Shown piece by piece: positions 28,587 to 53,665 of a DNA stretch of 62,488 nucleotides (positions within the stretch are counted from its first letter, which is position 1; every line of letters starts with the position of its first letter). The stretch covers positions 1 through 62,488 of the forward strand of contig JAFGHI010000005.1 of assembly GCA_016930235.1 (NCBI GenBank), in the 5' to 3' direction. This DNA is from Candidatus Omnitrophota bacterium. GTDB lineage: Bacteria > Omnitrophota > Omnitrophia > Omnitrophales > Aquincolibacteriaceae. The notes below the pieces were generated by a model. That model made no database searches. It was given only the letters and a program-made list of their open reading frames with translations, and was not told the origin of the DNA. Position numbers and translations under genes: made by a program.

Positions 28587-29081
28587 TCAATATTTATCCC
28601 CAAAAATCTTCCTCATTTTTTCGACAATCATCTGGTAATCTTTCTCGCTCGCGCCCCAACGCTGAAGCGCTCCATCCCGTTTCTGATGGTATTCTTTGAC
28701 ACTCGGATCCCTTAAAATTGCGCGGTCATAACCGTCGGTGACAGCTGACATATCTTGGCCATCTTTAACGAGACAATCGCCCAACATCGCGTAATATTTC
28801 GCAGGCTGAGAGTTTAACCTCATAGCCTTTCCAAGGTACTCCCTCACAATATCATAATCTCCTTTTTTCCAATAAACCTCGGCCATCGCAATGTAAACCT
28901 GGTCATTCTCCTTGTCCATGAGTCTTGCCTTATTAAACTCGGCTATGGCTGCATCATAATCTCCTTTGGCGACCATTTGGTGACCCTTCTGCAAGAAAAT
29001 TTTGGCCCACCCATGATTCGACCGGCACCCCATGACAAGACAAGGGATAAATAATCCCAAAAGGATAAGTTTCCTAATCAT
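28587..29081 (-). CDS. TPR-repeat lipoprotein
   Basis: Signal plus lipobox MIRKLILLGLFIPCLVMGC, followed by TPR-like repeats (AIAEFNKA, AMAEVYWKKGDYD). Confidence 0.6.
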   Translation of the reverse strand: MIRKLILLGLFIPCLVMGCRSNHGWAKIFLQKGHQMVAKGDYDAAIAEFNKARLMDKENDQVYIAMAEVYWKKGDYDIVREYLGKAMRLNSQPAKYYAMLGDCLVKDGQDMSAVTDGYDRAILRDPSVKEYHQKRDGALQRWGASEKDYQMIVEKMRKIFGDKY

Positions 29082-30354
29082 AACTCTTTCCCGCATGCTT
29101 TTTCATTGCCAGATTGGCAACATTACACATCAGTCCGCAAAAAAACCAGAAGAAATAAGTTTGTTTGGGTTGCCACAAATTCGATTCAAAAAAACCCGCC
29201 ACAAGAAATGCCAAGATCCCTCCGAGGAACCCCAGGAGGTTCGCTTTCAACAAACGATCATCTAATCGGCGATACGCTCGATACCATAAACACAACATCC
29301 CCATAAGCACCATCAAAAAGGAAATTAACCCCACAACCCCCGTTTCGGCCGCAATCTGAAGATATGCCTGATGGGCCGACCAACGTGTCGTGGGGTCACC
29401 CACGGCTTTAAAAACATTGTAATTGAGATCAAAGGTATTAAGACCCACCCCAAACCATGGGCTGGAACGAATCATATTCCAGGCTGTCGTATGGTAATGA
29501 GACCTACTCTCATCAACGAGAAAACCTTTCAAGGAATGAAGCCCTTGGAGCCAGCCCCAAATATCGGAAGGTAGTAATAAAAAACAAGCAACGCAAACCA
29601 ACCCCAAAGCGATCAATAATTTTAAATCCCTCTTTAAAACCATGAACAGGAACACAGCGGCCCCAAGGCCTAAGAGAGCTGTCCTGGAGTAAGTCAAACC
29701 GACACACCCCATCATCAATAGCACTAAGCCCCAACTCATCCGCCAATCTTTTCCTCCATAACGGGCAATCGAAAAAACCAGCGGCAGTAAAACACATAAA
29801 TAAATAACAAACGCATTGGAGTTGGAAAAACTTGACGTAATCCGAATTAGATTATTAAAACCGACATGAGGGGTATGTCCCCGCAAAGGATCCCACCCAA
29901 TAAGATATTGCAGCAATCCATCAAGGCTTGCAATCAACGCTCCGGCCATTAAGGCAAGCATGACATAACGCCACGATTTTTTATCCGTAATGACTTCGCG
30001 GGAAACCAGAAACAAAAGCAAATACCGGAACAGCTTATGAACCCCTTGGAGACTCATCCCCAAGTACTGGGATTTGAAAACCGATATCAAACTCACAATA
30101 AAAAACAGGGCGACGGTCGCGTCAACACAGACATCGAAAATAGTAAAATCCCGGCGGAGGATTCTTCTTAAAACCACACTTACCATCAAAAGGACAATCC
30201 CGATGTTGAAAAGGGCAAAGGAAAATGGGAAAGAAACCGCCATCACCAAAGCAGCGTAAAAACTCATCTTCGATAAGCGATCTGACCATAAGGGCAGAGA
30301 ATAATTCCCTTTGCCTTCTTTCAATCTCGCTATTATTACGGGGATATTGATCAT
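29074..30354 (-). CDS. O-antigen ligase/polymerase (Wzy_C) family membrane protein
   Basis: Polytopic protein with a large loop and the family-typical RTALLGLGAAVFLF region. Its start overlaps the upstream stop as ATGA at 30351-30354. Confidence 0.7.
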   Translation of the reverse strand: MINIPVIIARLKEGKGNYSLPLWSDRLSKMSFYAALVMAVSFPFSFALFNIGIVLLMVSVVLRRILRRDFTIFDVCVDATVALFFIVSLISVFKSQYLGMSLQGVHKLFRYLLLFLVSREVITDKKSWRYVMLALMAGALIASLDGLLQYLIGWDPLRGHTPHVGFNNLIRITSSFSNSNAFVIYLCVLLPLVFSIARYGGKDWRMSWGLVLLMMGCVGLTYSRTALLGLGAAVFLFMVLKRDLKLLIALGLVCVACFLLLPSDIWGWLQGLHSLKGFLVDESRSHYHTTAWNMIRSSPWFGVGLNTFDLNYNVFKAVGDPTTRWSAHQAYLQIAAETGVVGLISFLMVLMGMLCLWYRAYRRLDDRLLKANLLGFLGGILAFLVAGFFESNLWQPKQTYFFWFFCGLMCNVANLAMKKHAGKSYD

Positions 30355-31751
30355 GCGGTGACTCTTTGAAAACGTTTTTGAAACGACATCCCGATATCCC
30401 GAAGAAACCCTTTTAGATACTTCCATAAATAAACGGGCAGGTCCTGAAAATACGGGTGTTTGGGGATTCCTATGAGCAACTTCAAAAACCGTTCTCTTAA
30501 AAACATTTTGTGGTACTTCTTAAGTTCTTTAGCGGTTAGAACCTCCGATAGAATAACTTTCTTATCACTAAAGCTGAGATTAATCTTATCCCAGTCCATA
30601 TCTTCAGAAACCAGTCCTTTGCTAAGAGCATAATCCCATACCGGCGTTCCCGGCAAAGGAGTTAAGATATAAACATCCGTAACAGTCAGAGGCAGTTTTT
30701 TGAAGAATCGAAAAGTTTCCATCACATCTTCCCGGGTTTCTTCGGGACTTCCGATAATAAAAGACCCGCTTGTGAATATCTTGTTTTTCTTCAGAAGCTG
30801 AACGGCATTCCAATTTTGTTCCACCTTGACGCCGTCTTTGAGAAAATCCAGCGTCTTCTGACAACCTGATTCGAGCCCCATATTAACGGAAACAACCCCA
30901 ATTTCGTTAAAAAGATCACAGAGTTCCTGATCGACAAGGTTGGCTCGCGCATTTCCCGTAAAACGAACTTTGCCGACCAATCTTTTTTCTCGCATGAGCG
31001 CCGCGATTTCCTTGAGTCTTTTTCTGTTCCCGGCAAAAAGATCATCGCTGAAGCTGATTAAATTAACATGATATCGGGTCACCAAGTGTTCGATTTCTTG
31101 AACCACACGATTCGCTGGATGCCAACGGACTATTTTGTGAAGATGCGTCGAAGCACAAAAAGCACACCGGTACGGACAACCCCGGGAAGTAAACATATAG
31201 GTATGGCGTCCCACCGTGAGATATTCCCGGGCGGGTATTGGGATTGAAGTCACATCAGGCAGTTCAACATCCGGTTTATTTTGAATTTTCTGACCATTTT
31301 TCCAAAAAACGATTCCGTCAATCCTCTCAAGATCCTCTAAGGGAAAAGTCCCTTTCTCTTGGAATATCCTCATCAACTTATTGAGTTTTAACTCCCCCTC
31401 TCCGATGACCCCTATATCCATTTCCGGGGTTAAGCTTTGAGGGATCACCGTCATATGGATCCCCCCAACGATGACCGGGAGACCATATTTCTCCTTGGCA
31501 AGCTTAGCATAAGCCTTGGCTTTGTTAAAATTTTGAGTCACGGCGCTAAGACATACGATATCCGGGCAAAACCCCTTCCGAGATAGCTCTTCAGGAATTT
31601 TACGATCGACCACTTTAAACTCAAAGGCGGATTCCCCGAACTCTTGCTTAAGGGAGGCAATCAAATAGCCAAATGCCAAGGAGGGGTAACGTGTTTCTAC
31701 CTCGCGGAAGGGATCAATAGCATTAATAAAAAGTATGCGTCTAGGCTTCAT
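30351..31751 (-). CDS. Cobalamin-binding (class B) radical SAM enzyme
   Basis: N-terminal B12-binding Rossmann-like half (DIVCLSAVT...VIVGGIHMT) and radical SAM cluster motif CPYRCAFC. Confidence 0.85.
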   Translation of the reverse strand: MKPRRILFINAIDPFREVETRYPSLAFGYLIASLKQEFGESAFEFKVVDRKIPEELSRKGFCPDIVCLSAVTQNFNKAKAYAKLAKEKYGLPVIVGGIHMTVIPQSLTPEMDIGVIGEGELKLNKLMRIFQEKGTFPLEDLERIDGIVFWKNGQKIQNKPDVELPDVTSIPIPAREYLTVGRHTYMFTSRGCPYRCAFCASTHLHKIVRWHPANRVVQEIEHLVTRYHVNLISFSDDLFAGNRKRLKEIAALMREKRLVGKVRFTGNARANLVDQELCDLFNEIGVVSVNMGLESGCQKTLDFLKDGVKVEQNWNAVQLLKKNKIFTSGSFIIGSPEETREDVMETFRFFKKLPLTVTDVYILTPLPGTPVWDYALSKGLVSEDMDWDKINLSFSDKKVILSEVLTAKELKKYHKMFLRERFLKLLIGIPKHPYFQDLPVYLWKYLKGFLRDIGMSFQKRFQRVTA

Positions 31752-31868
31752 AAATCCTGAATCATAAATTGCCGTAAGTTAAGACAATGTAGTCCTTTTT
31801 GATCATTTTGTCAAACGCTTAAGCCACTCTAATAGGGGCATTGACGCTCTAAGGAATAAATGCTATAA

Positions 31869-32495
31869 ATGGCTCCTATGTTTTACCGCCTCTTACGATT
31901 TCTCTACATGGATCTGGGCATGATATTGCGCCGTCTGTTTTGGAAGACCGTGATCTCTTTAGACGGCGGCCATATCGGTAAAAACTTCTGTTGTTATAGT
32001 GGTGTGGCTCTAGCACAAACGACAAAAGGTTCGATATTTATTGGCGATGATTGTCGAATTCTCCGAAACGCAACACTAAACACCATTGAAAATGGCAAAA
32101 TCACCATCGGTGACCATGCCTATATTGGGGAATCGAATATCATCGCTGCTTACCACAAAGTCACAATTGGCAATTACGTCGTCATGGGACCGCATAATGT
32201 CATCATTGACTTGACTCATGTTACAGACCGCCGAGACATTCCCATAAGGCTTCAGCCCTGGAATGGAAAACCAATTATCATCGAAGATGATGTCTGGATT
32301 GCTTCAAGGTGTGTCATCCTGCCTGGTGTCAAAGTTGGCCGAGGAGCCGTCATTGGTGCAGGATCTGTGGTCACTAAAGATGTTCCCGAATACGCTATTG
32401 TCGCCGGCATTCCTGCTAAGATTATCAAGTGGCGAAAAGATTCGAAGCCGGAAACAGCCCAGGAATCGTTAACCACAATCGAAGCTGGCACCTAA
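31869..32495 (+). CDS. Hexapeptide-repeat (LbH) sugar acyltransferase
   Basis: Left-handed beta-helix repeats, ending [48 protein letters not shown]. It is the only plus-strand gene in the glycan cluster. Confidence 0.8.
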
Positions 32496-32497
32496 AG

Positions 32498-33997
32498 TCA
32501 CATCTCACCTGAAGCAGAAATAAACCACACGGCCATCTCGTCATTTTCAAAAACTTTTTTGAAATAAGGTATCGCCCCTAATTGCTTCACAAAAGACTGG
32601 GGATAACCTCCAAAATGATGCCGATTGGAGTCATCATAAATCCTGTCTTTCTTAACGGCTAAATAGCGAATGTTCTGGTCCATCATAAAATCAATCACTT
32701 CCTTTTTGTCGTCTCCCCAGAAAAGTTTCCTCAACTGATCTCGAAACAAATGATTCGCCCAAACATACCCTCGATTCGTCTTTTCAAGAATAATCATCTC
32801 GGAATAAATCACGAGCGTCCCTTCCGGCACCGTTTCCTGAATAAAATCAAAGCCTTCTTGAATCCCCGGGGTCACTTGTCTTTTTTGTGCGACATAAACA
32901 GCTGCTCCCCCCATTTGAAAAAGGCATAAACTCACAAGCAGGACTCTGAGTAAAAAACGCGACATCAACTTAACCGCCACCGTTGCTGCCAAAATCCCCA
33001 GAAAGGGGACCAAAACTAAGAGGTATCGAATATCCGAGGCCGGATGAAAAATGTAGCAGAACCCCAAAAGGTAAACAATGATCGGCATCCAAAGCACCGA
33101 ATGCCTTTTCTTCGGGATCTGACGCATAAGAAAATACATCACGATAAGAATCAAAAGCGGTACTCCAAAATATTTTAAAACATCCATTAAATTTAAAAGC
33201 GATGAATTTGAATAACTTTCTAAAAGCAAACCCCAGTCTTGTAAGAGAACCCTTCTTTTCAACGCTTCCCAAAAAGATAAATGATTTACCGTATGACCCG
33301 CGCCCTGCAAAAGGCGTGTGGCTCCAAGATGAGACTTTCTCCATAACATTTCTCCGCTCATGAGAACAGCCGACGGAATCACAAAAAAAACAAATTGCCG
33401 GGAACGCTCCCAGAATCCATGCCTTTTATCCCAGAGCATGATGAACATCCATGCCGGCAGGAATAAAAGCACGGTAATCTTGAACAAACACGCTAGGGCA
33501 AAAAAAACTGCTGAGAAGGCTATCTTCCTCCTTAGAAGAAATAAAAAACTTAAAATCAAAAAAGCAGCCTCGGCAATATCAACATAAAATAAAATACCGA
33601 AAGCAACCATCATAGGACATGTCGCCGTCAAGAGCACCGAATAGAAAGCCTCGTTTTCACCCAAAAGGTGCCGGGCCAGAAAGTAAACCCCCAAGAGCAG
33701 CAGCAAAGTATAACTCGCATGATAAATTTGAGCGATGAAGGGTGATATACCTCCTGCCACAAACCAAAGCACCGCAAGAAGAAAATGCCATAAGGGTTCC
33801 GTATTATAAAAATACCCCCCAAAAGTGTTCCGGTAAATAGCGTCGACCGTCGGCCGGGCATGGGACTCAAACATCCCTTGCGCAAAACGATAATGAAAAA
33901 CCTCATCTCCTAAACAAGGTTCCGATAAAACGCCCGCCAGCAATACGATAAAAAAAACACCGAGAATCAAAAAAAGCGATTTCTTATCCATGTTCAC
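32498..33997 (-). CDS. GT-C fold glycosyltransferase, PMT/ArnT-like (GT39-like), paralog 1
   Basis: 499 aa with more than 10 TM helices. The first loop carries GDEVFHYRF, a DE motif like that of PMT loop 1. The soluble C-terminal domain ends HHFGGYPQSFVKQLG...MAVWFI. Confidence 0.7.
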   Translation of the reverse strand: MNMDKKSLFLILGVFFIVLLAGVLSEPCLGDEVFHYRFAQGMFESHARPTVDAIYRNTFGGYFYNTEPLWHFLLAVLWFVAGGISPFIAQIYHASYTLLLLLGVYFLARHLLGENEAFYSVLLTATCPMMVAFGILFYVDIAEAAFLILSFLFLLRRKIAFSAVFFALACLFKITVLLFLPAWMFIMLWDKRHGFWERSRQFVFFVIPSAVLMSGEMLWRKSHLGATRLLQGAGHTVNHLSFWEALKRRVLLQDWGLLLESYSNSSLLNLMDVLKYFGVPLLILIVMYFLMRQIPKKRHSVLWMPIIVYLLGFCYIFHPASDIRYLLVLVPFLGILAATVAVKLMSRFLLRVLLVSLCLFQMGGAAVYVAQKRQVTPGIQEGFDFIQETVPEGTLVIYSEMIILEKTNRGYVWANHLFRDQLRKLFWGDDKKEVIDFMMDQNIRYLAVKKDRIYDDSNRHHFGGYPQSFVKQLGAIPYFKKVFENDEMAVWFISASGEM

Positions 33998-35360
33998 TAT
34001 ATCGAGGCTTCCTTGGGCAGCCCCATCCTTTTAAAATTTGAGCGGGCTTTAACCACGTCAAAACATTTCGAAGATAGCGGATCTTTCCCTTGAAGGGCAT
34101 CGCCCACCAACAGGTTATTAGCAATGCCAATTGCCAACGTGCCAACTGGTGTTCATCATGCTCGTTAAGATATCGAATATTATCCACATCCCGATCAAGC
34201 CACTCGGCTTCAGAACAAAATCTCTTCTTAAGAAATTCCCGGTTGAAAACCGTTCCGGGGAAAAGATAAAGAGAGCGTGAAACGCTAAAGCTGTCCGCCC
34301 GTATCTTCCGTATCAATTGCTGAGTTTCCTGAATCGTTTGCCTACTTTCTCCAGGACTGCCAACAATGAAACAAGCATGAAGTTGAATATTCAAGTCTTT
34401 CATACTCTTTGCGACTTCCTCGATCTTCTCAAGACTCACCCTCTTACCCAAATGTCCCAGAATATCTTGGCTTCCGCTCTCGATACCAACGGCAATCTCA
34501 ACACATCCTGCACTTTTCATAGCCTTGAGTATAGATTCGTTCAAAGTATTGATTCGGGCCGTCGCTCGCCATAGGAGATTCCATTTTTTCTTTTCAATCG
34601 CTTGGCATATTTCATACACCCTTGGAGGACTCTCCGTGAAGGTATCATCCATGAAATAGATGAACTCCACGCCGTGTTTCTCGACAAGGCCTGTCAATTC
34701 TTCCATGATATTCCGAGTACTTCGGAAACGCGGTTTCCCCCAGAAACTCGGTGCCGCACAAAACTTACAAGCTCCCGAACATCCCCGTGAAGTGATCACA
34801 GTCGCTGCCTTTCTCCGTTTGCCGAGTAAATCAACCTCGTGCGGAATATAATAGGGAAAAGGCAGGATATCTAAGTTTTCGATATACGGTCTCTTTTCAT
34901 TAATGCCAAGAGTGCCTTCTTTCCGAAAAACCAATCCACGGATCCCCTCAAAGCTTCGGCCGGATAAAAGACAGTCAATAAGCTCCGATAATGTTTTTTC
35001 ACCCTCGCCTCGAATGATAAAATCAATCCACGAAAAGTTTTCCATAATTTGCTCATACAGATAAGACGCATGAAATCCTCCTAGAACAATCATCGCTTCG
35101 GATGAAATTTCCTTAACGGCTCTTGCCAGATCCAAGGAGACAAATCGGCTGGTTGAAAAGGTGCTAAAACCAACAAGCCTAGGCTGTTTCTCAGCCACCT
35201 GCTGAAGCAGCATCTTTTCAGAAACAAGGCTCAAGTCGATAATGCACACTTGAATGGATGGATTTTTATCTTCCAAATATGACTTCAGATAACTAAGGCC
35301 TAAATGGGGATAAAACGTATCTCCCATCGACGCACGCGGATTGACTAGAAAAATGTGCAT
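33984..35360 (-). CDS. Cobalamin-binding (class B) radical SAM enzyme, second copy
   Basis: B12-binding half (LVGFSTFST...IVLGGFHAS) and CSGACKFC cluster motif. Confidence 0.85.
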   Translation of the reverse strand: MHIFLVNPRASMGDTFYPHLGLSYLKSYLEDKNPSIQVCIIDLSLVSEKMLLQQVAEKQPRLVGFSTFSTSRFVSLDLARAVKEISSEAMIVLGGFHASYLYEQIMENFSWIDFIIRGEGEKTLSELIDCLLSGRSFEGIRGLVFRKEGTLGINEKRPYIENLDILPFPYYIPHEVDLLGKRRKAATVITSRGCSGACKFCAAPSFWGKPRFRSTRNIMEELTGLVEKHGVEFIYFMDDTFTESPPRVYEICQAIEKKKWNLLWRATARINTLNESILKAMKSAGCVEIAVGIESGSQDILGHLGKRVSLEKIEEVAKSMKDLNIQLHACFIVGSPGESRQTIQETQQLIRKIRADSFSVSRSLYLFPGTVFNREFLKKRFCSEAEWLDRDVDNIRYLNEHDEHQLARWQLALLITCWWAMPFKGKIRYLRNVLTWLKPAQILKGWGCPRKPRYSEHG

Positions 35361-35373
35361 AGGCTTAAAAAAT

Positions 35374-35988
35374 TTACCGTTTTACTCCTAACATAAACCA
35401 TTCGGTGCAAAAAGGCTTAATTTTCAGGAATGGGAGATACTTTCGAAACAAAGGGCCAAATTCGGGTCTTTCACGAATAATACGGAATTCCTTTTCAAAA
35501 AATTCTCTAGCCGTCCCGATACTAAAACGCCAATGATGACCGAAGACCGATTCGTCGTAGCCACGAATACGACTGAAAAGCTGCGCATACAAGGAATTCA
35601 AGCTTTTATCATTCGGTAAAGAAACAAGAACGTGGCCGTCCGTTTTCAAAACCCTTTTGATCTCGCGGAGCATTTCAAGAGGATAAAGTAAATGTTCCAG
35701 GGTAGCAGAACAATTAACGGCATCAAAATATTGGTCCTCAAACGGCAATCTCCGGGCGTTTAAGTCTACCTTTTTGAATCCTTCGAATTCGTTATCCGCG
35801 TTATCGATGCCATAATATATCAAATCGGTATTTAAATATTTCTTCAGCCCGCCCTGACAACATCCCACGTCCAGAAAGTTCCCTTTCTTCTCTTTGAAAA
35901 ATTCCGCAATCAAACCATACCGCGTCTTTTCATAACCGCCCAGATTCAGGCATTCGACCATTCTCTCGTGATGATGGACCTCAGGCAT
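35374..35988 (-). CDS. Class I SAM-dependent methyltransferase
   Basis: SAM motif I FLDVGCCQGG and motif DAVNCSATLEHL. The start is uncertain (35988 or 36021). Confidence 0.8.
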   Translation of the reverse strand: MPEVHHHERMVECLNLGGYEKTRYGLIAEFFKEKKGNFLDVGCCQGGLKKYLNTDLIYYGIDNADNEFEGFKKVDLNARRLPFEDQYFDAVNCSATLEHLLYPLEMLREIKRVLKTDGHVLVSLPNDKSLNSLYAQLFSRIRGYDESVFGHHWRFSIGTAREFFEKEFRIIRERPEFGPLFRKYLPFLKIKPFCTEWFMLGVKR

Positions 35989-36496
35989 AACATCCTTCCG
36001 TCTTAACCGTTCCTGTCTCAATAAAATCTTTCAAAGCACCAACAATTGCATCCAGCCCTTCGCAATTATAATTCATCACCGGATTAAAATTCATAAATTC
36101 TTCGACCTGCTTTTTGATCTCAGAGGGCTCATAAACCACTTGAACATGTCCCATCTTTTTGTCTTCGACTGTCCTTGCAAAATCAAGCTGATGCTCATCA
36201 GCCAACTCCCCCAGGCGGTAGCGCCTGGGGCAAACAATCAGGGGCTTTCGAAATCGCTTAGCATTGACAATGGGTCCGATGGAACAGTGTGAAATAACCA
36301 AACTCGCCTTCTCATAATGTTCAAGATACTCCGCTAAAGGTGCATACCGAAAATACTGTGCATGCTTGGGCGTATAATTCGTACAAGCAATCTGCATCAA
36401 CATAGGCTCAGAAACTTCTCGCGCGATTTGGTCGCAGGCCTCAATCAACCGCTTGAAACCAAAGAGCTTGTCCGTCCCAACGGTCACGAAAATCAT
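35981..36496 (-). CDS. Glycosyltransferase 28 C-terminal domain protein (Alg13/PssE-like catalytic half)
   Basis: 171 aa starting MIFVTVGT, typical of the Alg13/EpsF/PssE family. 4-nt overlap with the Alg14-like gene. Confidence 0.7.
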   Translation of the reverse strand: MIFVTVGTDKLFGFKRLIEACDQIAREVSEPMLMQIACTNYTPKHAQYFRYAPLAEYLEHYEKASLVISHCSIGPIVNAKRFRKPLIVCPRRYRLGELADEHQLDFARTVEDKKMGHVQVVYEPSEIKKQVEEFMNFNPVMNYNCEGLDAIVGALKDFIETGTVKTEGCYA

Positions 36497-46865: not shown

Positions 46866-47410
46866 TTTCTCTTTCTGATTATGCGGGCGGGTACACCCAC
46901 AGCAACACTATATGGCGGAATATCTTTGGTCACAACAGCACCCGCCCCAATCACGGATCCTTTCCCAATCCGGACGCCTTTGAGCACCTTCACGGAAGTC
47001 CCAAGCCAAACATCATCCTCGATGATCACCTCACCGCCCACAGTCCCTTGATCGTCGATCGAGCGCTCACAATCCCCCCATTGATGGTTAAAATCGACAA
47101 TGACACATTGGGGAGCCAGTAAAACCTTTTTCCCCAGAAGCATTTTTCCCTGGCTGTTAAGGACACAATACTCCCCGATATAAGAACCCGCTCCTATCTC
47201 AATACTTCCCCCATTGGCAGCGCTAATAATGGCCCCTTGCATCAGATGAACATCAGAACCAATATGGATGGGATTCTTTTTAGAGCTGGCGATAACCACA
47301 TGATTGTAGATTTTGACTCTTTTCCCAAGACGACCTCCGCGAAAAGATAGAACGATCTTCCAAAAAAAATAGCGGAAACGTAACAAAGCTTTTATCCCTA
47401 ATTCAATCAT
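46862..47410 (-). CDS. Hexapeptide-repeat (LbH) sugar acyltransferase, second copy
   Basis: IIEDDVWLGTSVKVLKGVRIGKGSVIGAGAVVTKDIPPYSVAVGVPAR. Paralog of the 31869-32495 product. 4-nt overlap with the downstream GT-C gene. Confidence 0.8.
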   Translation of the reverse strand: MIELGIKALLRFRYFFWKIVLSFRGGRLGKRVKIYNHVVIASSKKNPIHIGSDVHLMQGAIISAANGGSIEIGAGSYIGEYCVLNSQGKMLLGKKVLLAPQCVIVDFNHQWGDCERSIDDQGTVGGEVIIEDDVWLGTSVKVLKGVRIGKGSVIGAGAVVTKDIPPYSVAVGVPARIIRKRK

Positions 47411-47504: not shown

Positions 47505-48566
47505 TCAGTTACCTCTTCCCAAAAGTTTCCTGATCAAAAAAATTGAAGACGTACCCAAGCGGGTATTGGCAACCCGCCACAGCCCATTCCACAAATGCCC
47601 TCTTAAACTACTGAAACTTTTTGTATAAGTGTGGAACGGATAAGCTATGGCTCCCCATTTTTCCTTAAATTTTGAAAGGGTATCTCCGAATCCGTAACCG
47701 GTCGCAAAATCAAAATAACGGCACTTTCTCTCCAAGGTGTTCACCAGAGCTTGATGCGTCAAAAGATCATTCGGCCGGAGATCAAAATATCTCTCGTCGG
47801 AAACCATCAGGTAATCCACAACACAATCCTTTGAGAAAATCAGAAATGTTGCCGCAATGGGTTTTGATCCGGCGTAAGCAAAGAGGTAATCTCCGTAACC
47901 GTTTTTAACAATCTGATGATAGATGGAAAGAAAAAAATCTTTTCGGAAAGGACCGACCGTATCATTCCTGTCCATCGTGCGGCGATAAAGCTGATAGTAG
48001 GCTTCAATTTCCTGTTCGGAGCGTATGGAGCGAATTTCGACCCCATTCTTGACGGCCTTTTTGACGGCACGTCTCGTACTCGAACCATAACTATCCCAAA
48101 GACTTTGCGGAGTCACCCCTTCAAGATCCACCAAGTGTTGGCATGTTTCCGTTATTTTATAACCGTCCCCCAACTCGAAACGATTGAGGAAATGACTTGT
48201 GATCCTAATTTGATGGATCCCCTGCTTGCGCAAATCTTCTTCGATTGCCCCCAAAAACTCCGGGAATAGATGACGCTCCCCAAGTAGTCCTCCATAAGGG
48301 ACATTGTCAAAAAATATCCGGATAAACCGAAAATCCAGGACAAGACCGATAGTCCCGCAAAGGATTTTTCCCTCCCGCTCAAAAACATAACAAATCGATT
48401 TGGCCCCGTATCGGCGATAACCTGCCTCCAAGGCTTGTGCCCAAATCGAATAGGAAAAAAGCAAGCCATTTTGCTCCCGAACAAAATCGTCCCAACGCTC
48501 ATCGAGCGCAATTCGCCTAATTCGGGATATCACGGTTGGGTTTTCAACCGGCAAAGTTACCGTCAC
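47505..48566 (-). CDS. FemAB-fold / GNAT (Acetyltransf_6, CelD-like) acyltransferase
   Basis: 353 aa. The two-lobed size and architecture, and the C-terminal YFDFATGYGFGDTLSKFKEKWG block, resemble FemAB-like GNAT proteins found in exopolysaccharide loci. This is pattern recognition only. Confidence 0.55.
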   Translation of the reverse strand: MTVTLPVENPTVISRIRRIALDERWDDFVREQNGLLFSYSIWAQALEAGYRRYGAKSICYVFEREGKILCGTIGLVLDFRFIRIFFDNVPYGGLLGERHLFPEFLGAIEEDLRKQGIHQIRITSHFLNRFELGDGYKITETCQHLVDLEGVTPQSLWDSYGSSTRRAVKKAVKNGVEIRSIRSEQEIEAYYQLYRRTMDRNDTVGPFRKDFFLSIYHQIVKNGYGDYLFAYAGSKPIAATFLIFSKDCVVDYLMVSDERYFDLRPNDLLTHQALVNTLERKCRYFDFATGYGFGDTLSKFKEKWGAIAYPFHTYTKSFSSLRGHLWNGLWRVANTRLGTSSIFLIRKLLGRGN

Positions 48567-48587: not shown

Positions 48588-50324
48588 TTAAAAAGGATAG
48601 CTTCCTTCTTCATGTCTTCTCACCTCGGCAATGGTTTCAGTCACATTGATCGGTGTCGAGTTACTAGTGTCCTGGGAAGGAACAAAGCTCTCATCGTCCA
48701 GCAACGGATAATCAGCGCCGAAATAATTGTTGAAAATCATGCGAAAGCTATTGGCCGGAGTGATCGATGGGTACATGTTGCGATCTCCTCCATCCGGCAA
48801 ATAATAGATATTCAAAATCCCCAGGGTTTCTTTGAGATATTCACGGAGCTCAGTCTCGTCTTCCCGATTGACGGCAGAAGTCCTGGCCATGCGCCACTCC
48901 AGCCGCGGTCCATGATCCCCCTGAAAAATAATGATCGGAGGAATTTCCGAATTGGCCAGTAAATAATCCACCAATTCGATGACCTTCTTATTTGCAAAGG
49001 CGACCTGAGCCGCATAAAGTTTCTTGCGGTATTCCCCTCCTTGGCTTCCGAGATTGATCAGCTGATTGAAGGAATAATTCCCACCATCTTCCTTAAAAAC
49101 ATAAGGTGGATGCGGCAAAATGATATGAGCAAAAGAAAACACGGGATCGGGATTTTTGGACATCTCTTTTAATTTTTCAAAGACATATAAAACGGATTGG
49201 CGCCGGTCCGGGACCGTCAAAACGGTCATCAGCGGATTTAAAACAGACGGTTTTAAGAGCATGGTCGCAAATTCATTGATTTTTTCGTTATTAAAGTTGA
49301 AATCCGCATCACGGCTCGCTTTGGTCGGAGGATAGGCCGTTGACGCAAAATGGGCGTAACGATAACCCATCGATTTTAAGATGCGAACCACCCGGTTATT
49401 CTTAATCGTACTGTAAAACGGTCGAAACCTCGGCCCTGTTCGGGAACTCGCTTCATAATCGCGGTAATGCATATAATTCAGATTTAACGAAGTCGGTAAA
49501 GACCACGTTGTATAGACATAATTGCTTCGGCTCTCGCGGGCGACATAAAATCCCCTTTTCTCGAGCTCTTCATAAAATCCTTCGTTTGAATACCCATAAA
49601 TATCTTTCAGCGTTTGGGCGCTTCCGTAACCATCCAAAATGATGTAATAAATATCCCGTAAAGGGGCAATCGCATGTCCTGTAAAGGCCTCCACGGCCGA
49701 GTCTTGCTCTCTTCGGACATCCGGATGCTTCCCCCACAGTTTGAGTTTAAACCCGCCGATTTGGATTAAACTCATCATCATGAGAATGATCGAAACCAGA
49801 TTTAAAAAACGGGTTAGGCCTAAAGGAGTCTTCTGAACCCGTAAAAGGGTATAAAAACAAAGGCCGACAGGAAGGATCACCAAGAGCCCCACCCAAACCA
49901 GGTAATCATGAAGAGGCCGAAGACCGAAATGAAACACTTCGAATCGGTCAAGATACATTCTGGTATGACCATACATGAAAAACAAAACCATAAAAACCGA
50001 GGTCAGAATCCCCGCTTTATGAAAATTCCTAAGCAAGATCCATGAAACCAAAACCATCACACAGGTAAATCCCAACAAGACAGCAAACGGAAGGGCAGCC
50101 TCGGAAACCTCGGCCTCGTGGGCATTGTGAGCAAAGAGAAAAAAAACGGGGTAAATCCCGAACAGGAAAGGATGGATGACCCAATTTCGCTTCACCGGCC
50201 TTTCCCCAAATCCGGGCTGTGATTTACCAGAAATGCGAAAGGATCCAGCATGCTTTTCGGACATGCTTTTTTCTTCAACATCAGTCGTTTTAGGCTTTTT
50301 CTCCAAGAAAACCGGCATCAGCAT
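48588..50324 (-). CDS. Membrane-anchored alkaline-phosphatase-superfamily (sulfatase/LtaS/EptA-like) transferase
   Basis: About 5 N-terminal TM helices, then a soluble domain with IILDGYG (metal Asp), TTWSLPTSL (nucleophile region), ILPHPPY and FQGDHGP. Confidence 0.6.
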   Translation of the reverse strand: MLMPVFLEKKPKTTDVEEKSMSEKHAGSFRISGKSQPGFGERPVKRNWVIHPFLFGIYPVFFLFAHNAHEAEVSEAALPFAVLLGFTCVMVLVSWILLRNFHKAGILTSVFMVLFFMYGHTRMYLDRFEVFHFGLRPLHDYLVWVGLLVILPVGLCFYTLLRVQKTPLGLTRFLNLVSIILMMMSLIQIGGFKLKLWGKHPDVRREQDSAVEAFTGHAIAPLRDIYYIILDGYGSAQTLKDIYGYSNEGFYEELEKRGFYVARESRSNYVYTTWSLPTSLNLNYMHYRDYEASSRTGPRFRPFYSTIKNNRVVRILKSMGYRYAHFASTAYPPTKASRDADFNFNNEKINEFATMLLKPSVLNPLMTVLTVPDRRQSVLYVFEKLKEMSKNPDPVFSFAHIILPHPPYVFKEDGGNYSFNQLINLGSQGGEYRKKLYAAQVAFANKKVIELVDYLLANSEIPPIIIFQGDHGPRLEWRMARTSAVNREDETELREYLKETLGILNIYYLPDGGDRNMYPSITPANSFRMIFNNYFGADYPLLDDESFVPSQDTSNSTPINVTETIAEVRRHEEGSYPF

Positions 50325-52478
50325 TCACTTTTTTGAAGCATACAGCGTCATTAAAGCAGACCGTTTAAAAAGACTTTCGATAAAAGCAAAAGGGGCACAC
50401 AAACAAGTCACCACGCCCCATAAAAGACTCAAATGTGCCGTCGAGAACCCCTGTTTTTGTTTATGCCATATCAGCTGGGGATCCAGAGCGGGAAAGGCAC
50501 TCACCACCAAGGTGGGCGGATGCCACCAATTATTCATGAAATCTATTTCGTTCACTGTGAACCCTGCATCATCGACAAGTTTCTTCAAGGCAGTTGGCGT
50601 AAAGTAATACAAATCCCTTGGAACGTCGAAAGCCGCCCAGTGGCTTTTAAAAAAATGACTCTGGATCGAATCAAAATTGGGAACTTCGATCACGAGTAAA
50701 CCATCCTTTTTCAAGATCCTATGGATTTCCCCAAGCACACTTCTGGAATCATGAAGATGCTCGAGAACGTTATAAAGCGTAATGATATCAAAAGAGTTTT
50801 TCGAATAATTGGCTTGGTGGAGTGTCCCTCGAAAAAGATTAGGGCCCAATCTTCTTTTGGCGTAATCGACGCTTCCGGCCGTTTCCACGCCATAAACGTC
50901 GAAACCCTTTTCTTTAAAAACTTGAAGGCGGTCACCTGTACCGCAGCCCACATCCAGCACCCGCCCCGACGTCCGGCCATAGCGTTTGATCACTTTACCG
51001 GTTTCGTACCGGAGGAGATGGAAACGGTAAAACTTCTCAAGCCGTTCCATGACGTTGAGCTTTTTCCCCTCAGAGGCTTCCTCCTCCTTCCAAGAATAGG
51101 TTTCGGGATAAAAACGACCGATTTTCTTCTCAGTCGGCCTGGGATTCACACAAGCTAGACCGCATGAAGTACACTTCACAACGCTAAATGGATTCTTCGA
51201 GATCCCGTACTTCTCCTTACGATCAAAAAGTTTCACGGTCTCGGTTTGACGGCAGAGTACACAGGATGACTGAAATTCCATCTCCGGTTCACGCCCCTGA
51301 AAATTCCGTACCAAATCAATGACAAAATCGCTTTCGTTCTCTGAAAGATCCGGAAATAAAGGAAGTGTCAAAATCCGTTTCCAAACCTTTTCGCACACGG
51401 GAGACACAAATTTGCAGGTTTTATACATGGGGTAATGATAATTCGGGCGATAGTGGACACCCGTCGAAACCCCCTTTTCTTTCAGGTATTCGCAGAGTTG
51501 ATCCCGGTTATCCACTTTGATGACATAGTTGTGACAGGCGCTTTTCGCATTTGGAACATTTGAAGGCGTTTCCACCCAATCAAGATCACGAAAAGCACGA
51601 TTATACTTCTCAGTAATCCGGCGCCTCTTTTCATTTAAGGCATCCAGTTTCTTCAGTTGGACAAGCCCCATGGAAGCCATTACATCGTTCATGCCGTAAC
51701 GGAACCCTATTTCGTCAACGTCATACCACCAGGAATACCGGCCTTCTTCATGAGAAGTCCGCGACCATGTCTCTTTGGAAATCCCCATCCACCTGAGCTT
51801 CACCAACCGCTCGTAAACTTCTTTCGAATTCGTCGTGATCATCCCCCCGTCACCTACCGAAAGGTTTTTTACCGCATGAAAACTAAAACACCCAATATCC
51901 CCCAAAGCACCGAGCTTTTTCCCTTGGTATTCTCCACCGCACCCATGTGCAGCATCTTCAATGACAAGAAGGTTATGGCGCTTCGCGATACTGAGGATCC
52001 TATCCATGGAACAAGGGGTACCGCCATAATGCACCGCGAGAATGGCTTTCGTTCTTTTTGTGACGAGACTCTCCACCGAAACAGGATCGAGATTCAGCGT
52101 CTCGGGATCAATATCCGCAAAAACGGGAATGCCAGCGTTGTATAAAATCGCGTGATTGGTCGAAACAAAGGTCAAAGGTGTTGTGATAACTTCCCGGCCC
52201 TCCACCCCCGCAACCTTCAAAGCAAGGTGCAGACTTCCCGTTCCGGAATTGGTCGCAATCGCATATTGGACCCCAACATACTTCGCAAACCTTTCCTCAA
52301 ATTCTTTGACTTTCGGGCCCGTCCCCGTCCACCCTCTTTGAAGACAGTCCCGGATAGCTTCAACCTCTTCTTCGCCATAAGAAGGCCGAAAAACGGGTAT
52401 GTTATAGTTCGTCTCTAATTTTTGATTCTGCTGAGTGGGCTTCGTAGCAACATCATTTAGCATTTTATTTCCGCTCAC
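50325..52478 (-). CDS. Fusion protein: DegT-family aminotransferase + CxxC...CxxC zinc ribbon + class I SAM methyltransferase
   Basis: 717 aa. Residues 1 to about 395 are DegT-like (CFSFHAVKNLSVGDGG). CVLCRQ...CTSCGLAC forms the ribbon. VLDVGCGTGD and FDIITLYNVLEHL are methyltransferase motifs. The tail is hydrophobic. Confidence 0.85.
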   Translation of the reverse strand: MSGNKMLNDVATKPTQQNQKLETNYNIPVFRPSYGEEEVEAIRDCLQRGWTGTGPKVKEFEERFAKYVGVQYAIATNSGTGSLHLALKVAGVEGREVITTPLTFVSTNHAILYNAGIPVFADIDPETLNLDPVSVESLVTKRTKAILAVHYGGTPCSMDRILSIAKRHNLLVIEDAAHGCGGEYQGKKLGALGDIGCFSFHAVKNLSVGDGGMITTNSKEVYERLVKLRWMGISKETWSRTSHEEGRYSWWYDVDEIGFRYGMNDVMASMGLVQLKKLDALNEKRRRITEKYNRAFRDLDWVETPSNVPNAKSACHNYVIKVDNRDQLCEYLKEKGVSTGVHYRPNYHYPMYKTCKFVSPVCEKVWKRILTLPLFPDLSENESDFVIDLVRNFQGREPEMEFQSSCVLCRQTETVKLFDRKEKYGISKNPFSVVKCTSCGLACVNPRPTEKKIGRFYPETYSWKEEEASEGKKLNVMERLEKFYRFHLLRYETGKVIKRYGRTSGRVLDVGCGTGDRLQVFKEKGFDVYGVETAGSVDYAKRRLGPNLFRGTLHQANYSKNSFDIITLYNVLEHLHDSRSVLGEIHRILKKDGLLVIEVPNFDSIQSHFFKSHWAAFDVPRDLYYFTPTALKKLVDDAGFTVNEIDFMNNWWHPPTLVVSAFPALDPQLIWHKQKQGFSTAHLSLLWGVVTCLCAPFAFIESLFKRSALMTLYASKK

Positions 52479-52526
52479 ATTTCATCATGGATATCTTGAT
52501 AGGTCTCATGATCTCAATATTTATAT

Positions 52527-52931
52527 TTAAACCGTGTTTCGGCTAACACTTTCTTGCTCTATCGGTTTGACAGCCGGTGATGGCTCCAGCATGGAGTTCA
52601 TCTCAAACCGCAAGAGCGCCAGCTCTTGAATGGATTCCCTTCGATCTTTGGAATAGCGCGTTAGGACAACTGTCAGAAAGGTTCCTGCCACAATGGCCAC
52701 AAAAGTGACGGTAAAAAGGATAACTTCATGCCGCCAGAAAAGAAAAATGCCTGAAAATGATCCCGTTTCGCTCGGATAGTAGATCACACGAAAAAGAAAG
52801 AGAGCGGTGACAACTGTCCAGCCTAACCCATACTTATCCCGCAACACTTCCTGATGGACCAATTGGGAGACAAGACCGAAAAGAAGGACGGTCGCCAGGG
52901 CTTCAAAGATATGAAAATAAATTTCGGTCAT
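52527..52931 (-). CDS. DUF2304-like small membrane protein
   Basis: Internal Met start (MTEIYFHIFEALATVLLFGL...), three to four TM helices, then a charged tail. Its start overlaps the upstream GT2 stop as ATGA. Confidence 0.55.
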   Translation of the reverse strand: MTEIYFHIFEALATVLLFGLVSQLVHQEVLRDKYGLGWTVVTALFLFRVIYYPSETGSFSGIFLFWRHEVILFTVTFVAIVAGTFLTVVLTRYSKDRRESIQELALLRFEMNSMLEPSPAVKPIEQESVSRNTV

Positions 52932-53665
52932 GTGGATTGCAGCTCTCTTTCGCGCACACTTTCCATAATGATCGCATACGTCACTTTTAACATGTAATAA
53001 ACAGCTCGAAAAAATGAAATCGAAGAAACCCCCGTTGTTCTTGGCTTCATCGAAACCGGGACTTCCTTCATCCGGTGTCCGAAACGGCAAACACTCATGA
53101 GGACTTCGGGTTCGGGATAATCCATGGGATAACGGTCCGCAAACCGATCAATCAGTGAACGATTCATCGCCCGAAATCCCGAGGTCGGATCGCTGATCCA
53201 TTGGCCGGTGAGGACATAAAGCAGGCAGGAAAAGAAGAAGATGCCTATTCTCCGAGGCAGAGTGGAAAAAAAGACACCGGCCCCTCGAAATCTTGAACCA
53301 ATCACAAGATCCGCCTCACCTTCTAGGACAGGAGTCACAAGGGTCTTTAGATCTCCCGGGTAATGCTGCCCGTCTCCATCGACTTGAATTGCGATTTCAT
53401 ATCCCTTTCGTCTTGCAAACATGAGCCCCGTCTGAACGGCTGAGCCAATACCTAAATTCCGAAGATGGCTCAGGACAAAAACGCCCTTTCGGCCGGCAAC
53501 CTCAGCCGTTTTGTCCTTCGAACCATCATTAACGACAACGATGGAGGCTTGGGGCAAATTTACGTGGATCTCATCGATCACTTGTCCTATGCTGGCTTGC
53601 TCATTAAAGGCAGGTATAATCACCAGAATGGAATGATCCGATCCCGTCCTTTTTGAGTTTTCCAT
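52928..53665 (-). CDS. GT2 polyprenol-phosphate glycosyltransferase (GtrB/Ppm1/DPM1-like)
   Basis: 245 aa with ILVIIPAFNE, VVVNDGSKDKT and QVDGDGQH, as in polyprenyl-phosphate sugar synthases. First gene of the long minus-strand run. Confidence 0.8.
   Translation of the reverse strand: MENSKRTGSDHSILVIIPAFNEQASIGQVIDEIHVNLPQASIVVVNDGSKDKTAEVAGRKGVFVLSHLRNLGIGSAVQTGLMFARRKGYEIAIQVDGDGQHYPGDLKTLVTPVLEGEADLVIGSRFRGAGVFFSTLPRRIGIFFFSCLLYVLTGQWISDPTSGFRAMNRSLIDRFADRYPMDYPEPEVLMSVCRFGHRMKEVPVSMKPRTTGVSSISFFRAVYYMLKVTYAIIMESVRERELQST

Follow-up and report, generated by a model that had tools for sequence, protein, structure and literature searches.

A recurrent putative envelope-glycan cassette in an Omnitrophota contig, with two UPF0104 proteins and no Wzx in the window

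Flippases of lipid-linked sugars are among the least understood components of envelope biogenesis, and the eukaryotic flippase of Man5GlcNAc2-PP-Dol is still debated. A gene cluster of a Candidatus Omnitrophota bacterium raises the question of how such a step could be carried out where no Wzx is encoded. The cluster lies at positions 28587–53665 of contig JAFGHI010000005.1 (assembly GCA_016930235.1), of which a stretch of 62,488 nucleotides, called the window here, was analysed. The listing of open reading frames (ORFs) gave 25 genes in approximately 25 kb with near-zero intergenic space, 24 of them on the minus strand. A preliminary description made from the sequence had proposed an undescribed envelope-glycan system of about 26 genes, all but one on the minus strand; the strand distribution was correct, while the number is set here at 25. 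The analysis showed that the cluster is one member of a recurrent, uncharacterised cassette, the individual parts of which are all of known kinds. The probable function of this cassette is the two-compartment assembly, with extensive decoration, of an envelope glycan linked to polyprenol. Its most interesting feature is an apparent swap between Wzx and UPF0104 proteins among related loci.

The conservation of the cluster was assessed with Pfam-annotated contigs and by tblastn of the window proteins onto fetched related loci (designated by L numbers). A core set was found in at least 15 loci belonging to metagenome-assembled genomes (MAGs) of Omnitrophota, Planctomycetota, Elusimicrobiota, Thermodesulfobacteriota and others. 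It comprises a glycosyltransferase named GT2_a, a DegT aminotransferase with a MetW-like methyltransferase, a hexapeptide (LbH) acyltransferase, one to five GT-C glycosyltransferases, a B12-dependent radical S-adenosylmethionine (SAM) enzyme, one or two FemAB-like proteins, a DUF218 protein, the Alg14 and Alg13 halves of a split transferase, the methyltransferase MT_a, and the pair formed by GT2_b and a DUF2304 protein. The proteins are 30–66% identical across loci and the gene order is partly kept. The host MAGs were assigned to Sedimentisphaerales, Pirellulales, Elusimicrobiota, Omnitrophota, Thermodesulfobacteriota, "Deltaproteobacteria", Syntrophorhabdaceae and Peregrinibacteria, and no cultured organism was found among the hosts in the genome collection. 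The closest relatives of the GT-C enzyme GTC_b are only 39% identical, yet their neighbourhoods are strikingly alike. In L021 the order is that of the window, with DUF218, UPF0104, SGNH/AlgX, Alg14 (66% identity), Alg13 (52%), GT-C (44%), LbH on the opposite strand (61%) and a tetratricopeptide repeat (TPR) protein, while L022 carries Wzy_C (45%), TPR, UPF0104 and PMT genes. The preliminary description had proposed to look for the cluster as a unit in relatives, and the core indeed recurs across MAG phyla. Copy numbers of GT-C (1–5), LbH and FemAB genes vary freely among relatives. The genes for the alkaline phosphatase (AP)-superfamily protein, the short-chain dehydrogenase/reductase (SDR), the cupin, DegT_a, MT_b, Wzy_C and SGNH are accessory; apart from the window, the SDR occurs solely in a few metagenome contigs centred on GT2_a. 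No paper describing the set emerged when the literature was searched for this combination of genes, in agreement with the claim of an undescribed system, and literature on Omnitrophota and glycosyltransferases gave nothing relevant.

GT2_a is the most conserved gene of the cassette, with 45–51% identity across phyla. At least 459 relatives were counted in JGI metagenomes. Most of them come from sediments and wetlands, and they are often followed by the DegT and methyltransferase genes, or directly by GT2_b. In nine metagenome loci (L049, L051, L052, L054, L062, L066, L067, L081 and L092) a GT2_a relative is followed by GT2_b with no GT-C gene of the subfamily nearby, which suggests that a smaller, more widespread two-GT2 module may exist. 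A minimal version of the cassette was detected amid unrelated genes in a Syntrophorhabdaceae MAG (L016, 5128–14081). It consists of genes for a UDP-sugar dehydrogenase, a GFO/MocA oxidoreductase (WbpA/WbpB-like), DegT, a methyltransferase, GT-C, LbH, UPF0104 and FemAB, and its enzymes hint at a sugar of the 2,3-diamino-uronic-acid type. Two fusions were further observed in relatives, namely Alg13 (Glyco_tran_28_C) with a methyltransferase in L022 (2122–3351, 409 aa) and GT-C with a methyltransferase in P0041 (790 aa). Together with the DegT-methyltransferase fusion described below, they support a functional coupling of tailoring and transfer.

Pfam analysis confirmed the families that the preliminary description had counted twice or more (two PMT-like GT-C enzymes, two LbH acyltransferases, two B12-radical SAM enzymes, two DegT aminotransferases, two UPF0104 proteins and three methyltransferases), as well as its single-copy families (Alg14/Alg13, FemAB, SGNH/AlgX, DUF218, AP-superfamily, Wzy_C and Ppm-like GT2). 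A second GT2, the SDR, the cupin, the DUF2304 protein and the small TPR protein were missing from its list. Coordinates given below for the cluster refer to the minus strand, with the exception of LbH_a. The first gene of the long operon encodes GT2_b (52928–53665, 245 aa; Pfam Glycos_transf_2, E 4e-22), a short polyprenyl-phosphate glycosyltransferase of the Ppm/GacI/PpgS kind. Its nearest solved structures are DPMS (5mlz, 1.5e-10), ArnC (1e-8) and GtrB, and among the NCBIfam models PpgS (99 bits against a cut-off of 370) and AglJ match best, which indicates membership at the family level and not an equivalog. A multi-transmembrane region is lacking, as the only hydrophobic segment above threshold (residues 140–158) lies inside the catalytic domain. 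The start codon of the following gene (ATG at 52931) overlaps the stop codon of GT2_b; this gene (52527–52931, 134 aa) encodes a small membrane protein that is a likely member of the DUF2304 family (E 4e-5), to which GacJ and Rv3632 belong. The latter two bind and stimulate the undecaprenyl-phosphate (Und-P)-HexNAc synthases GacI and PpgS (10.1101/180810). The assignment is supported by the position, the size and the ATGA coupling of the gene, and by the same GT2-DUF2304 pair in L002/L003 and L103, there with a clear match to PF10066.

Two GT-C glycosyltransferases of one subfamily are encoded in the cluster: GTC_a (P0037; 32498–33997; Pfam PMT_2, E 6e-9, GT39/GT83-like, with weak ALG10 and ALG3 matches) and GTC_b (45255–46865; PMT_2, E 4.5e-10). 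A sequence search of the PDB with the GT-C profile gave no match and a fold search was therefore used. The AlphaFold (AF2) model of GTC_b, built from an alignment of 25 sequences of relatives, reached a mean predicted local distance difference test (pLDDT) score of 83.6. Foldseek retrieved STT3, AglB, PglB, ALG12, ArnT and DPY19 with E values of 2e-9 to 3e-6, and Pmt4 and AftA at E of approximately 1e-4 with a TM score of 0.42. All matches had a probability of 1.0, and the TM scores were 0.5–0.59 for the oligosaccharyltransferases, ALG12, ArnT and DPY19. According to the model, GTC_b adopts the GT-C fold and carries a small periplasmic domain at its C-terminus. In its relatives G31-D32-E33 and R38 are invariant and follow directly after the first transmembrane segment, in the first periplasmic loop, the position at which PMT and ArnT enzymes carry their catalytic acidic motif. 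An exhaustive HMMER search among 1.84 billion representatives gave only 199 clusters at 50% identity (E<=1e-30), and the subfamily is thus small, distinct and PMT_2-like.

The remaining transferases are of a different type. Alg14, the predicted membrane-anchor half of a split transferase (36493–36996; Pfam Alg14, E 3e-11), and Alg13, its MurG-type (GT28) catalytic half (35981–36496; Glyco_tran_28_C, E 4e-11), are adjacent; Alg14 homologues with 40–66% identity were found in at least 12 loci, each paired with Alg13. Split bacterial Alg13/14 homologues have been discussed previously (PMC4973528). GT2_a (44206–45285, 359 aa; Glycos_transf_2, E 3e-30) is a GT-A glycosyltransferase with one hydrophobic segment in a C-terminal membrane-association region. 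Its profile matched chondroitin synthase best (E 7e-27), followed by GalT1, heparosan synthase, PglI and GlfT2 (down to 7e-4 for GlfT2), whereas ArnC and GtrB reached merely 3e-5 to 6e-4. As the profile favours Leloir transferases, we read GT2_a as a transferase of the cytoplasm that uses a lipid-linked acceptor. An ArnC-like Und-P-sugar synthase was kept as a rival reading of GT2_a only, since Leloir transferases fit the profile about 20 orders of magnitude better. PgaC matches of the GT2 proteins were far below cut-off, and no processive multi-transmembrane GT2 synthase of the BcsA/Alg8/PgaC type was found. The proposal that assembly relies on polyprenol-phosphate-sugar donors is in line with GT2_b, DUF2304 and the GT-C fold, but its second part, a mainly periplasmic assembly, does not agree with the cytoplasmic Alg14/13 and GT2_a. 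With one Ppm-like GT2 and two cytoplasmic Leloir-type transferases, the pathway is consequently a hybrid.

Genes for initiation and conventional translocation were searched in the whole window. No Pfam match to Bac_transf, Glycos_transf_4, Polysacc_synt (the MOP family), Wzz or Wzm/Wzt was obtained for any ORF of the 62 kb, and tblastn with four Wzx proteins of related loci gave a best E of 0.19. This corroborates the earlier statement that an initiating phosphoglycosyl transferase (PGT), Wzx, Wzz and an ABC exporter are missing; the only ABC genes of the window are those of MlaE and MlaF (7202–8799). GtrA, ArnE/F and Wzx-like GacK families were not detected by Pfam in the cluster either. An initiating transferase was equally absent from the Pfam-annotated loci L002–L005, L020–L022 and L103–L105. 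A missing PGT is ordinary for glycan clusters, as E. coli O-antigen loci depend on the unlinked wecA. One apparent Wzx candidate, the cupin at 42541–43035, was rejected: it matches Polysacc_synt_C (E 6e-7, above the gathering score) but is a protein of 164 aa with no transmembrane segment. The same match is precomputed for the cupin copy in L001 and is probably an artefact of the Pfam model, which could mislead automated Wzx calls.

What the cluster does contain are two stand-alone UPF0104 (LPG_synthase_TM) proteins of the MprF flippase-domain family, encoded side by side. UPF0104_a (38047–39060; a 334-aa gene call runs to 39051) has a Pfam E value of 3e-21 and 57 bits against TIGR00374 (cut-off 43 bits); UPF0104_b (39057–40046) has an E value of 9e-19 and, with 46.9 bits, also lies above that cut-off. 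The only meaningful Foldseek matches of the AF2 model of UPF0104_a were MprF flippase domains (probability 0.9–1.0, query TM score 0.41–0.52, E 0.07–1.2). In the literature, UPF0104 is the flippase domain of MprF ("PplT"), for which a role as phospholipid translocase has been proposed; it is fused to the dolichyl-phosphate (Dol-P)-sugar synthase in archaeal AglD, and in GpgF it is predicted, not shown, to be a flippase. The literature on MprF, GpgF and AglD contains no UPF0104 protein that was experimentally shown to flip a polyprenol-linked sugar. We know of no proven function for stand-alone UPF0104 proteins.

The comparison of loci revealed a pattern in the distribution of the two families. 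Wzx (Polysacc_synt) is present in 12 loci (L003, L004, L005, L019, L027, L035, L036, L038, L044, L103, L104 and L105), in most of them immediately upstream of GT2_a and 2–3 kb away from it in L036 and L038. Five loci (the window, L016, L020, L021 and L022) have one or two UPF0104 genes inside the cassette and no Wzx in view. None of these 17 loci, many of which lie on truncated contigs, carries both. L103 has two Wzx genes, and UPF0104 occurs in duplicate in the window and in L020; in L021 the gene upstream of GT2_a encodes an unrelated flavin adenine dinucleotide (FAD) enzyme. This distribution suggests that Wzx and UPF0104 may be alternative translocases of the same pathway. It also qualifies the statement that the cluster fits no textbook layout, which holds with respect to ABC- and synthase-dependent systems but is overstated for the Wzy-dependent one; given the 12 related loci with a conventional Wzx, the system family as a whole is not Wzx-independent.

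From these data a two-compartment pathway can be proposed, for which we infer the substrates and the order of the steps as follows. In the cytoplasm the SDR, the cupin, two DegT, two LbH, the FemAB-fold protein, three SAM methyltransferases and two B12-radical SAM enzymes would tailor sugars into N-acylated or aminoacylated, methylated amino-deoxy sugars. Alg14/Alg13 and the Leloir-type GT2_a would extend a polyprenyl-diphosphate primer delivered by a phosphoglycosyl transferase encoded elsewhere. In parallel, GT2_b and DUF2304 would make a polyprenyl-monophosphate sugar in the manner of GacI/GacJ and PpgS/Rv3632. Translocation of the lipid-linked intermediates would be the task of Wzx in most relatives, and here the two UPF0104 proteins are the sole candidates. 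In the periplasm the two GT-C enzymes would add sugars from the monophosphate donor, the SGNH/AlgX protein would O-acetylate, the AP-superfamily protein would add a phospho-substituent, and Wzy_C with its TPR partner would polymerise the glycan or ligate it to the final acceptor, which may be LPS (lipopolysaccharide) core or lipid A, a protein or a free polymer.

Several likenesses to known systems are consistent with this proposal. The cluster shares with GacI/GacJ/GacK/GacL of Streptococcus pyogenes and PpgS/Rv3632/Rv3779 of Mycobacterium tuberculosis the short GT2, its likely DUF2304 partner and a GT-C enzyme, and the combination of GT2_b, DUF2304 and GT-C would, by analogy, equal the experimentally defined logic of GacI/GacJ/GacL and PpgS/Rv3632 (10.1101/180810). 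Two features of three-component systems are present, the polyprenyl-phosphate glycosyltransferase of GtrB/ArnC/DPMS/GacI type (GT2_b) and the GT-C enzyme with an acidic motif in the first extracytoplasmic loop (invariant D32-E33). In contrast to Gtr (GtrA/B/C), Arn and Gac systems, no GtrA, ArnE/F or Wzx-type flippase is encoded and two UPF0104 proteins are found instead; the cassette also differs from three-component systems by two to five GT-C enzymes per locus and the added Alg14/13, GT2_a, Wzy_C, FemAB, B12-radical SAM and DUF218 proteins. Sugar tailoring upstream by DegT and acyltransferases is shared with Arn (ArnC/ArnEF/ArnT). However, the scores against the Arn equivalogs are low (ArnB 319 vs 631, ArnC 37 vs 529) and the formyltransferase and polysaccharide-deacetylase domains of ArnA and ArnD are lacking. 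As neither ArnA nor ArnD is present, the cluster is not a member of the Arn pathway. Common to the Wzx/Wzy pathway are the polyprenol-linked glycan, Leloir transferases, a Wzy_C protein, nucleotide-aminosugar tailoring and, in relatives, the Wzx beside GT2_a. The window differs by having no Wzx, Wzz or PGT, and several GT-C enzymes imply a substantial periplasmic glycosylation that is foreign to the textbook scheme. Neither the Wzm/Wzt pair of ABC-dependent systems nor the features of synthase-dependent ones were found in the window.

The logic is also that of N-glycan lipid-linked oligosaccharide assembly in the endoplasmic reticulum (ER), with a cytoplasmic Alg14/13, a Dpm1/Alg5-like synthase, a flip and several GT-C enzymes outside, and it runs parallel to mycobacterial arabinogalactan and lipoarabinomannan assembly. 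ALG12, ALG9, ALG3, ALG6, AftA and EmbB are among the Foldseek matches of the GT-C model. In contrast to the ER, no Alg7/WecA, STT3-type oligosaccharyltransferase or Rft1 was found in the window; the likeness to both pathways is one of architecture and not of orthology. With respect to MprF, GpgF and AglD, both UPF0104 proteins pass TIGR00374 and the model matches the flippase domain of MprF only. The aminoacyl-phosphatidylglycerol synthase domain (DUF2156) was not detected by Pfam in the UPF0104 proteins or elsewhere in the cluster and they are for this reason not MprF; whereas AglD fuses the domain to a Dol-P-sugar synthase, the UPF0104 proteins of the cluster stand alone within a glycan cassette.

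A more far-reaching reading is that in one branch stand-alone UPF0104 proteins replaced the MOP-family Wzx as translocase of polyprenol-linked sugars or oligosaccharides, which would make the cassette a bacterial counterpart of the ER-type scheme. We regard this as speculative and on the unlikely side. If true, it would add a novel class of glycolipid flippase to bacterial glycan assembly, as well as a glycoconjugate pathway that is likewise new and so far confined to uncultured anaerobic lineages. The Wzx and UPF0104 forms of one conserved cassette represent a natural swap experiment, which opens the question to a direct test by complementation.

A number of observations weigh against the proposed pathway and against the swap. 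The Pfam score of the DUF2304 protein (24.3 bits) is just below the gathering threshold of 25.5 bits, and a single Ppm-like GT2 is available for two GT-C enzymes. All proteins except the two UPF0104 are below NCBIfam cut-offs, and these two pass only the generic TIGR00374; the specificities proposed above are therefore guesses. The confidence of the UPF0104_a model is moderate (pLDDT 70; Foldseek E 0.07). The window covers no more than 62 kb, and genes for a Wzx and a PGT may be located in other parts of the genome. The number of loci behind the mutual exclusion is small, and they are partly non-independent, with L004, L005 and L103–L105 mutually syntenic and L020–L022 found through UPF0104. 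Finally, the Wzx of the relatives could be a GacK-like flippase of Und-P-sugars and not of oligosaccharides.

Four other explanations were considered. It is rather unlikely that the cluster is an ordinary Wzx/Wzy O-antigen or exopolysaccharide locus with Wzx, Wzz and the initiating transferase elsewhere, in which GT2_b, DUF2304 and GT-C would act as Gtr-like side-branch modifiers and UPF0104 would flip, for example, a phospholipid. Such a locus would account for the conventional Wzx adjoining the same genes in 12 related loci and for the Wzy_C protein; many known O-antigen systems have their PGT gene outside the locus, and the phospholipid role proposed for UPF0104/PplT would suit it as well. 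It does not account for UPF0104 genes being embedded in the cassette in five independent loci, precisely those without Wzx, nor for the FAD enzyme that in L021 occupies the position held by Wzx elsewhere, and the 2–5 GT-C enzymes per locus far exceed the needs of side-branch modification. The second possibility is that two Arn-like three-component modules, each with a GT2 as Und-P-aminosugar synthase, a UPF0104 protein as flippase, GT-C, DegT and LbH, decorate an existing acceptor (lipid A or LPS core), so that no PGT or Wzx is needed. The counts agree, with two of each, the DegT proteins are near ArnB and PseC (below cut-off), and the size of GT2_a (359 aa) and its C-terminal hydrophobic region resemble ArnC and GtrB. 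GT2_a moreover adjoins GT2_b in many metagenome loci, and the minimal L016 has no other transferase. We nevertheless judge this explanation unlikely: the profile of GT2_a favours Leloir oligosaccharide or polymer transferases (7e-27 vs 3e-5 for ArnC), an Arn-type scheme has no role for Alg14/13 or Wzy_C, and no ArnA/ArnD-type formyltransferase or deacylase is encoded in the cluster.

General protein O-glycosylation, in which the PMT_2 GT-C enzymes, a PglL-like Wzy_C protein or both would act with TPR partners on envelope or S-layer proteins, appears very improbable. PMT_2 is the family of protein O-mannosyltransferases, the GT-C model aligns best with the oligosaccharyltransferases STT3, AglB and PglB, a TPR protein is coupled to Wzy_C, and the Wzy_C family includes PglL-type O-oligosaccharyltransferases. 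Foldseek is however equal for ArnT and ALG12 (TM score 0.52–0.57), which use lipid or glycan acceptors, and no acceptor-peptide-binding signature or target protein gene was found in the cluster. A chance juxtaposition of several unrelated small glycan operons is hardly tenable and was largely refuted by the neighbourhood comparison. Although the cluster comprises two likely transcription units, with a divergent spacer of 117 nt (31752–31868), the AP-superfamily, SDR, DegT_a and MT_b genes are missing in most relatives and Wzy_C was found only in L022, 13 gene families are found together time and again in different phyla, in an order that is locally conserved, and genes of the second unit (rSAM_a, LbH_a, TPR and Wzy_C) also adjoin cassette genes in L007, L009, L021 and L022. 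The two-compartment assembly of a polyprenol-linked glycan thus remains our preferred interpretation of the cassette.

The layout of the cluster was examined after revision of four start codons (Wzy_C 30354, MT_a 35988, SDR 42544 and DUF2304 52931), which gave intergenic gaps from -31 to +117 nt. The preliminary description had noted ATGA overlaps, and six true start/stop junctions of this kind were counted: Alg14>Alg13, SDR>MT_b, LbH_b>GTC_b, GT2_b>DUF2304 and, with the revised starts, rSAM_a>Wzy_C and cupin>SDR. Between UPF0104_b and UPF0104_a the junction reads TTGA. A first transcription unit likely runs from GT2_b (53665) down to GTC_a (32498), and a second, comprising rSAM_a, Wzy_C and TPR (31751 down to 28587), likely starts from the 117-nt spacer, which is common with LbH_a. 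Consensus scans of 28300–32700 gave no excess of promoters or terminators (7 vs 7.6 and 8 vs 5.2 expected from shuffled sequences) and the operon structure was consequently deduced from spacing only; no weight was put on a promoter-like site (10/12 at 31814–31786) or on a hairpin at 28357–28341. The GC content of the cluster is 0.445, compared with 0.482 for its left flank and 0.451 for its right flank, and GC3 is 0.472 in the cluster vs 0.510 (Mann-Whitney p = 1e-4). This composition check, suggested in the preliminary description, revealed a modest shift of only about 3–4 points, which is no strong evidence of recent horizontal transfer.

The duplicated functions are, judging by identities of 26–49%, real but old paralogues: GT-C 33.5% (E 6e-95), UPF0104 45% (2e-99), DegT 48.5% (1e-124), LbH 40% (1e-44) and radical SAM 26% (1e-28). 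The description as a cluster built from duplicated modules is consequently overstated, since the copies do not form repeated units and only the LbH-GT-C adjacency recurs. No enzyme of the cluster reaches any NCBIfam equivalog cut-off, and their specificities can thus not be read from the sequence; the only curated cut-off passed is that of the generic "flippase-like domain" TIGR00374, by both UPF0104 proteins.

Several genes of the cluster are predicted to act in sugar synthesis. The SDR (41531–42544; Pfam Epimerase, E 3e-35; GalE and RmlB below cut-off) is a NAD-dependent sugar epimerase/dehydratase, and with the start set at 42544 it has 337 aa, the length of the gene call in L001. The cupin mentioned above is of RmlC/FdtA type (dTDP_sugar_isom, E 3.5e-17; FdtA, E 4e-7) and would be an NDP-ketosugar epimerase or 3,4-ketoisomerase. 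DegT_a (43061–44197; DegT, E 1e-117) is a pyridoxal phosphate-dependent sugar aminotransferase with PseC and ArnB as nearest NCBIfam families, below cut-off. The second DegT domain (E 1e-116) is fused to a MetW-like SAM methyltransferase (Methyltransf_23, E 2e-26) in a protein of 717 aa (50325–52478). This fusion was also found in L007 (839–2926) and L009 (1281–3398), which are Elusimicrobiota and Omnitrophota MAGs, while in all other loci the halves (49–62% identical) are encoded by two adjacent genes. It looks like a Rosetta-stone case and would imply N-methylation of the newly made amino sugar. Two further SAM methyltransferases are encoded, MT_b (40773–41534; Methyltransf_11/25) and MT_a (35374–35988; Methyltransf_11/23), the latter coupled to Alg13, with a start at 35988 taken from the 204-aa gene call of L001. 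A homologue of MT_a with 58% identity directly follows Alg13 in L006, which is the same Sedimentisphaerales contig as L003.

The cluster further encodes acyltransferases and radical SAM enzymes. LbH_a (31869–32495, plus strand; Hexapep, E 4e-17; WcaF/WbbJ-like, below cut-off) is the sole gene on the plus strand and faces GTC_a in convergent orientation; its homologue in L021 (61% identity) has the same convergent position after GT-C. LbH_b (46862–47410; Hexapep, E 2e-16) is ATGA-coupled to GTC_b, and the LbH-GT-C adjacency is seen in most related loci. The FemAB-fold protein (47505–48566; Acetyltransf_6, E 5e-18; FemAB, E 4e-14), present in one or two copies in most related loci, is a putative acyl- or aminoacyl-transferase, in which the FemAB match spans residues 139–202 only and Acetyltransf_6 residues 163–290; FemX structures are marginal matches (E 0.07). 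The two class B radical SAM enzymes are rSAM_a (30351–31751; B12-binding and Radical_SAM; below every equivalog cut-off), whose homologues with 49–50% identity adjoin GT-C genes in L007, L009 and L013, and rSAM_b (33984–35360; B12-binding, E 8e-18; Radical_SAM, E 3.5e-24), with ApyD, HpnJ and PhpK as best NCBIfam matches, all far below cut-off. A link to hopanoid side-chain synthesis, where HpnI/J/L correspond to a GT2, a B12-radical SAM enzyme and UPF0104, was rejected: HpnJ scored 117–169 bits against a cut-off of 578 bits, and no squalene-hopene cyclase or other hpn gene was found in the window.

The remaining proteins all have hydrophobic segments. The DUF218 protein (40097–40741; E 3e-24; ElyC/SanA/YdcF family) has an N-terminal membrane segment and is a core member of the cassette, with 37–45% identity in L005, L008, L009, L013, L020 and L021. 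The SGNH/AlgX-like esterase or O-acetyltransferase (36998–38056; ALGX, E 9e-14; Lipase_GDSL_2, E 1e-13) has one N-terminal hydrophobic segment, an anchor or signal, and its L021 homologue (47%) has the same position. The AP-superfamily protein (48588–50324; Sulfatase, E 1e-6) is a putative membrane-anchored transferase. It lacks the C/S-x-P-x-R motif of sulfatases and has about five hydrophobic segments at its N-terminus, a topology that fits an LtaS/EptA-type phospho-transferase and not a sulfatase. It gave no PDB or NCBIfam match and was absent from every related locus compared. The Wzy_C-family protein (29074–30354; E 4e-19; longest ORF to 30426) is polytopic, with about nine hydrophobic segments. 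It may be an O-antigen ligase, a polymerase or O-oligosaccharyltransferase-like, as the domain does not separate polymerase, WaaL and PglL; its NCBIfam scores are far below cut-off (IctB family 88 vs 366 bits, PEP_O_lig_1 46 vs 188 bits). The small TPR protein (28587–29096; TPR_2/TPR_8/TPR_19), with a hydrophobic segment at residues 5–23, is encoded by the last gene of the second unit. The Wzy_C-TPR pair recurs in L022, where Wzy_C is 45% identical, and a TPR gene follows LbH in L021.

The cluster is embedded in genes of general function. The left flank is of housekeeping nature (ETF-QO, TonB/ExbBD, MlaEFD, 2-oxoacid:ferredoxin oxidoreductase, pyruvate dehydrogenase (PDH) complex, LplA and a Mrp-type antiporter), and the right flank carries genes for TPR, SRAP, DsbD, VanZ, a dockerin protein, tRNA-Pro and RodA/PBP2. 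The Mla and TonB/ExbBD systems show that the organism is diderm. The best named matches of PDH E1 were in Candidatus Omnitrophica MAGs (69–77% identity), which tentatively points to Omnitrophota. The cassette marks an unstudied, heavily modified surface glycan common to Omnitrophota, Planctomycetota, Elusimicrobiota and sulfate-reducer lineages. These lineages dominate anoxic sediments, and their attachment, their predation or symbiosis and their recognition by phages probably depend on surface chemistry.

Some further observations were made in the flanks. A 320-aa protein rich in TPR_12/TPR_10 repeats is encoded on the same strand 184 nt upstream of GT2_b (53850–54812) and is not found beside the cassette in relatives. 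At 58153–59361, near VanZ-like and DUF5329 genes, a 402-aa protein bears a type I dockerin domain at its C-terminus (E 3e-15), which is its sole Pfam match. On the other side, a 2-oxoacid:ferredoxin oxidoreductase pair (POR/TPP_enzyme_C; 10050–13963) is located between two CBS-domain proteins and adjoins a complete PDH complex, so that predicted anaerobic-type and aerobic-type 2-oxoacid-oxidising systems stand side by side. A scan of species-representative genomes did not retrieve the genome of the window, and all seven flanking housekeeping proteins present in the collection are singletons at 90% identity, the lineage, probably Omnitrophota, being very sparsely sampled.

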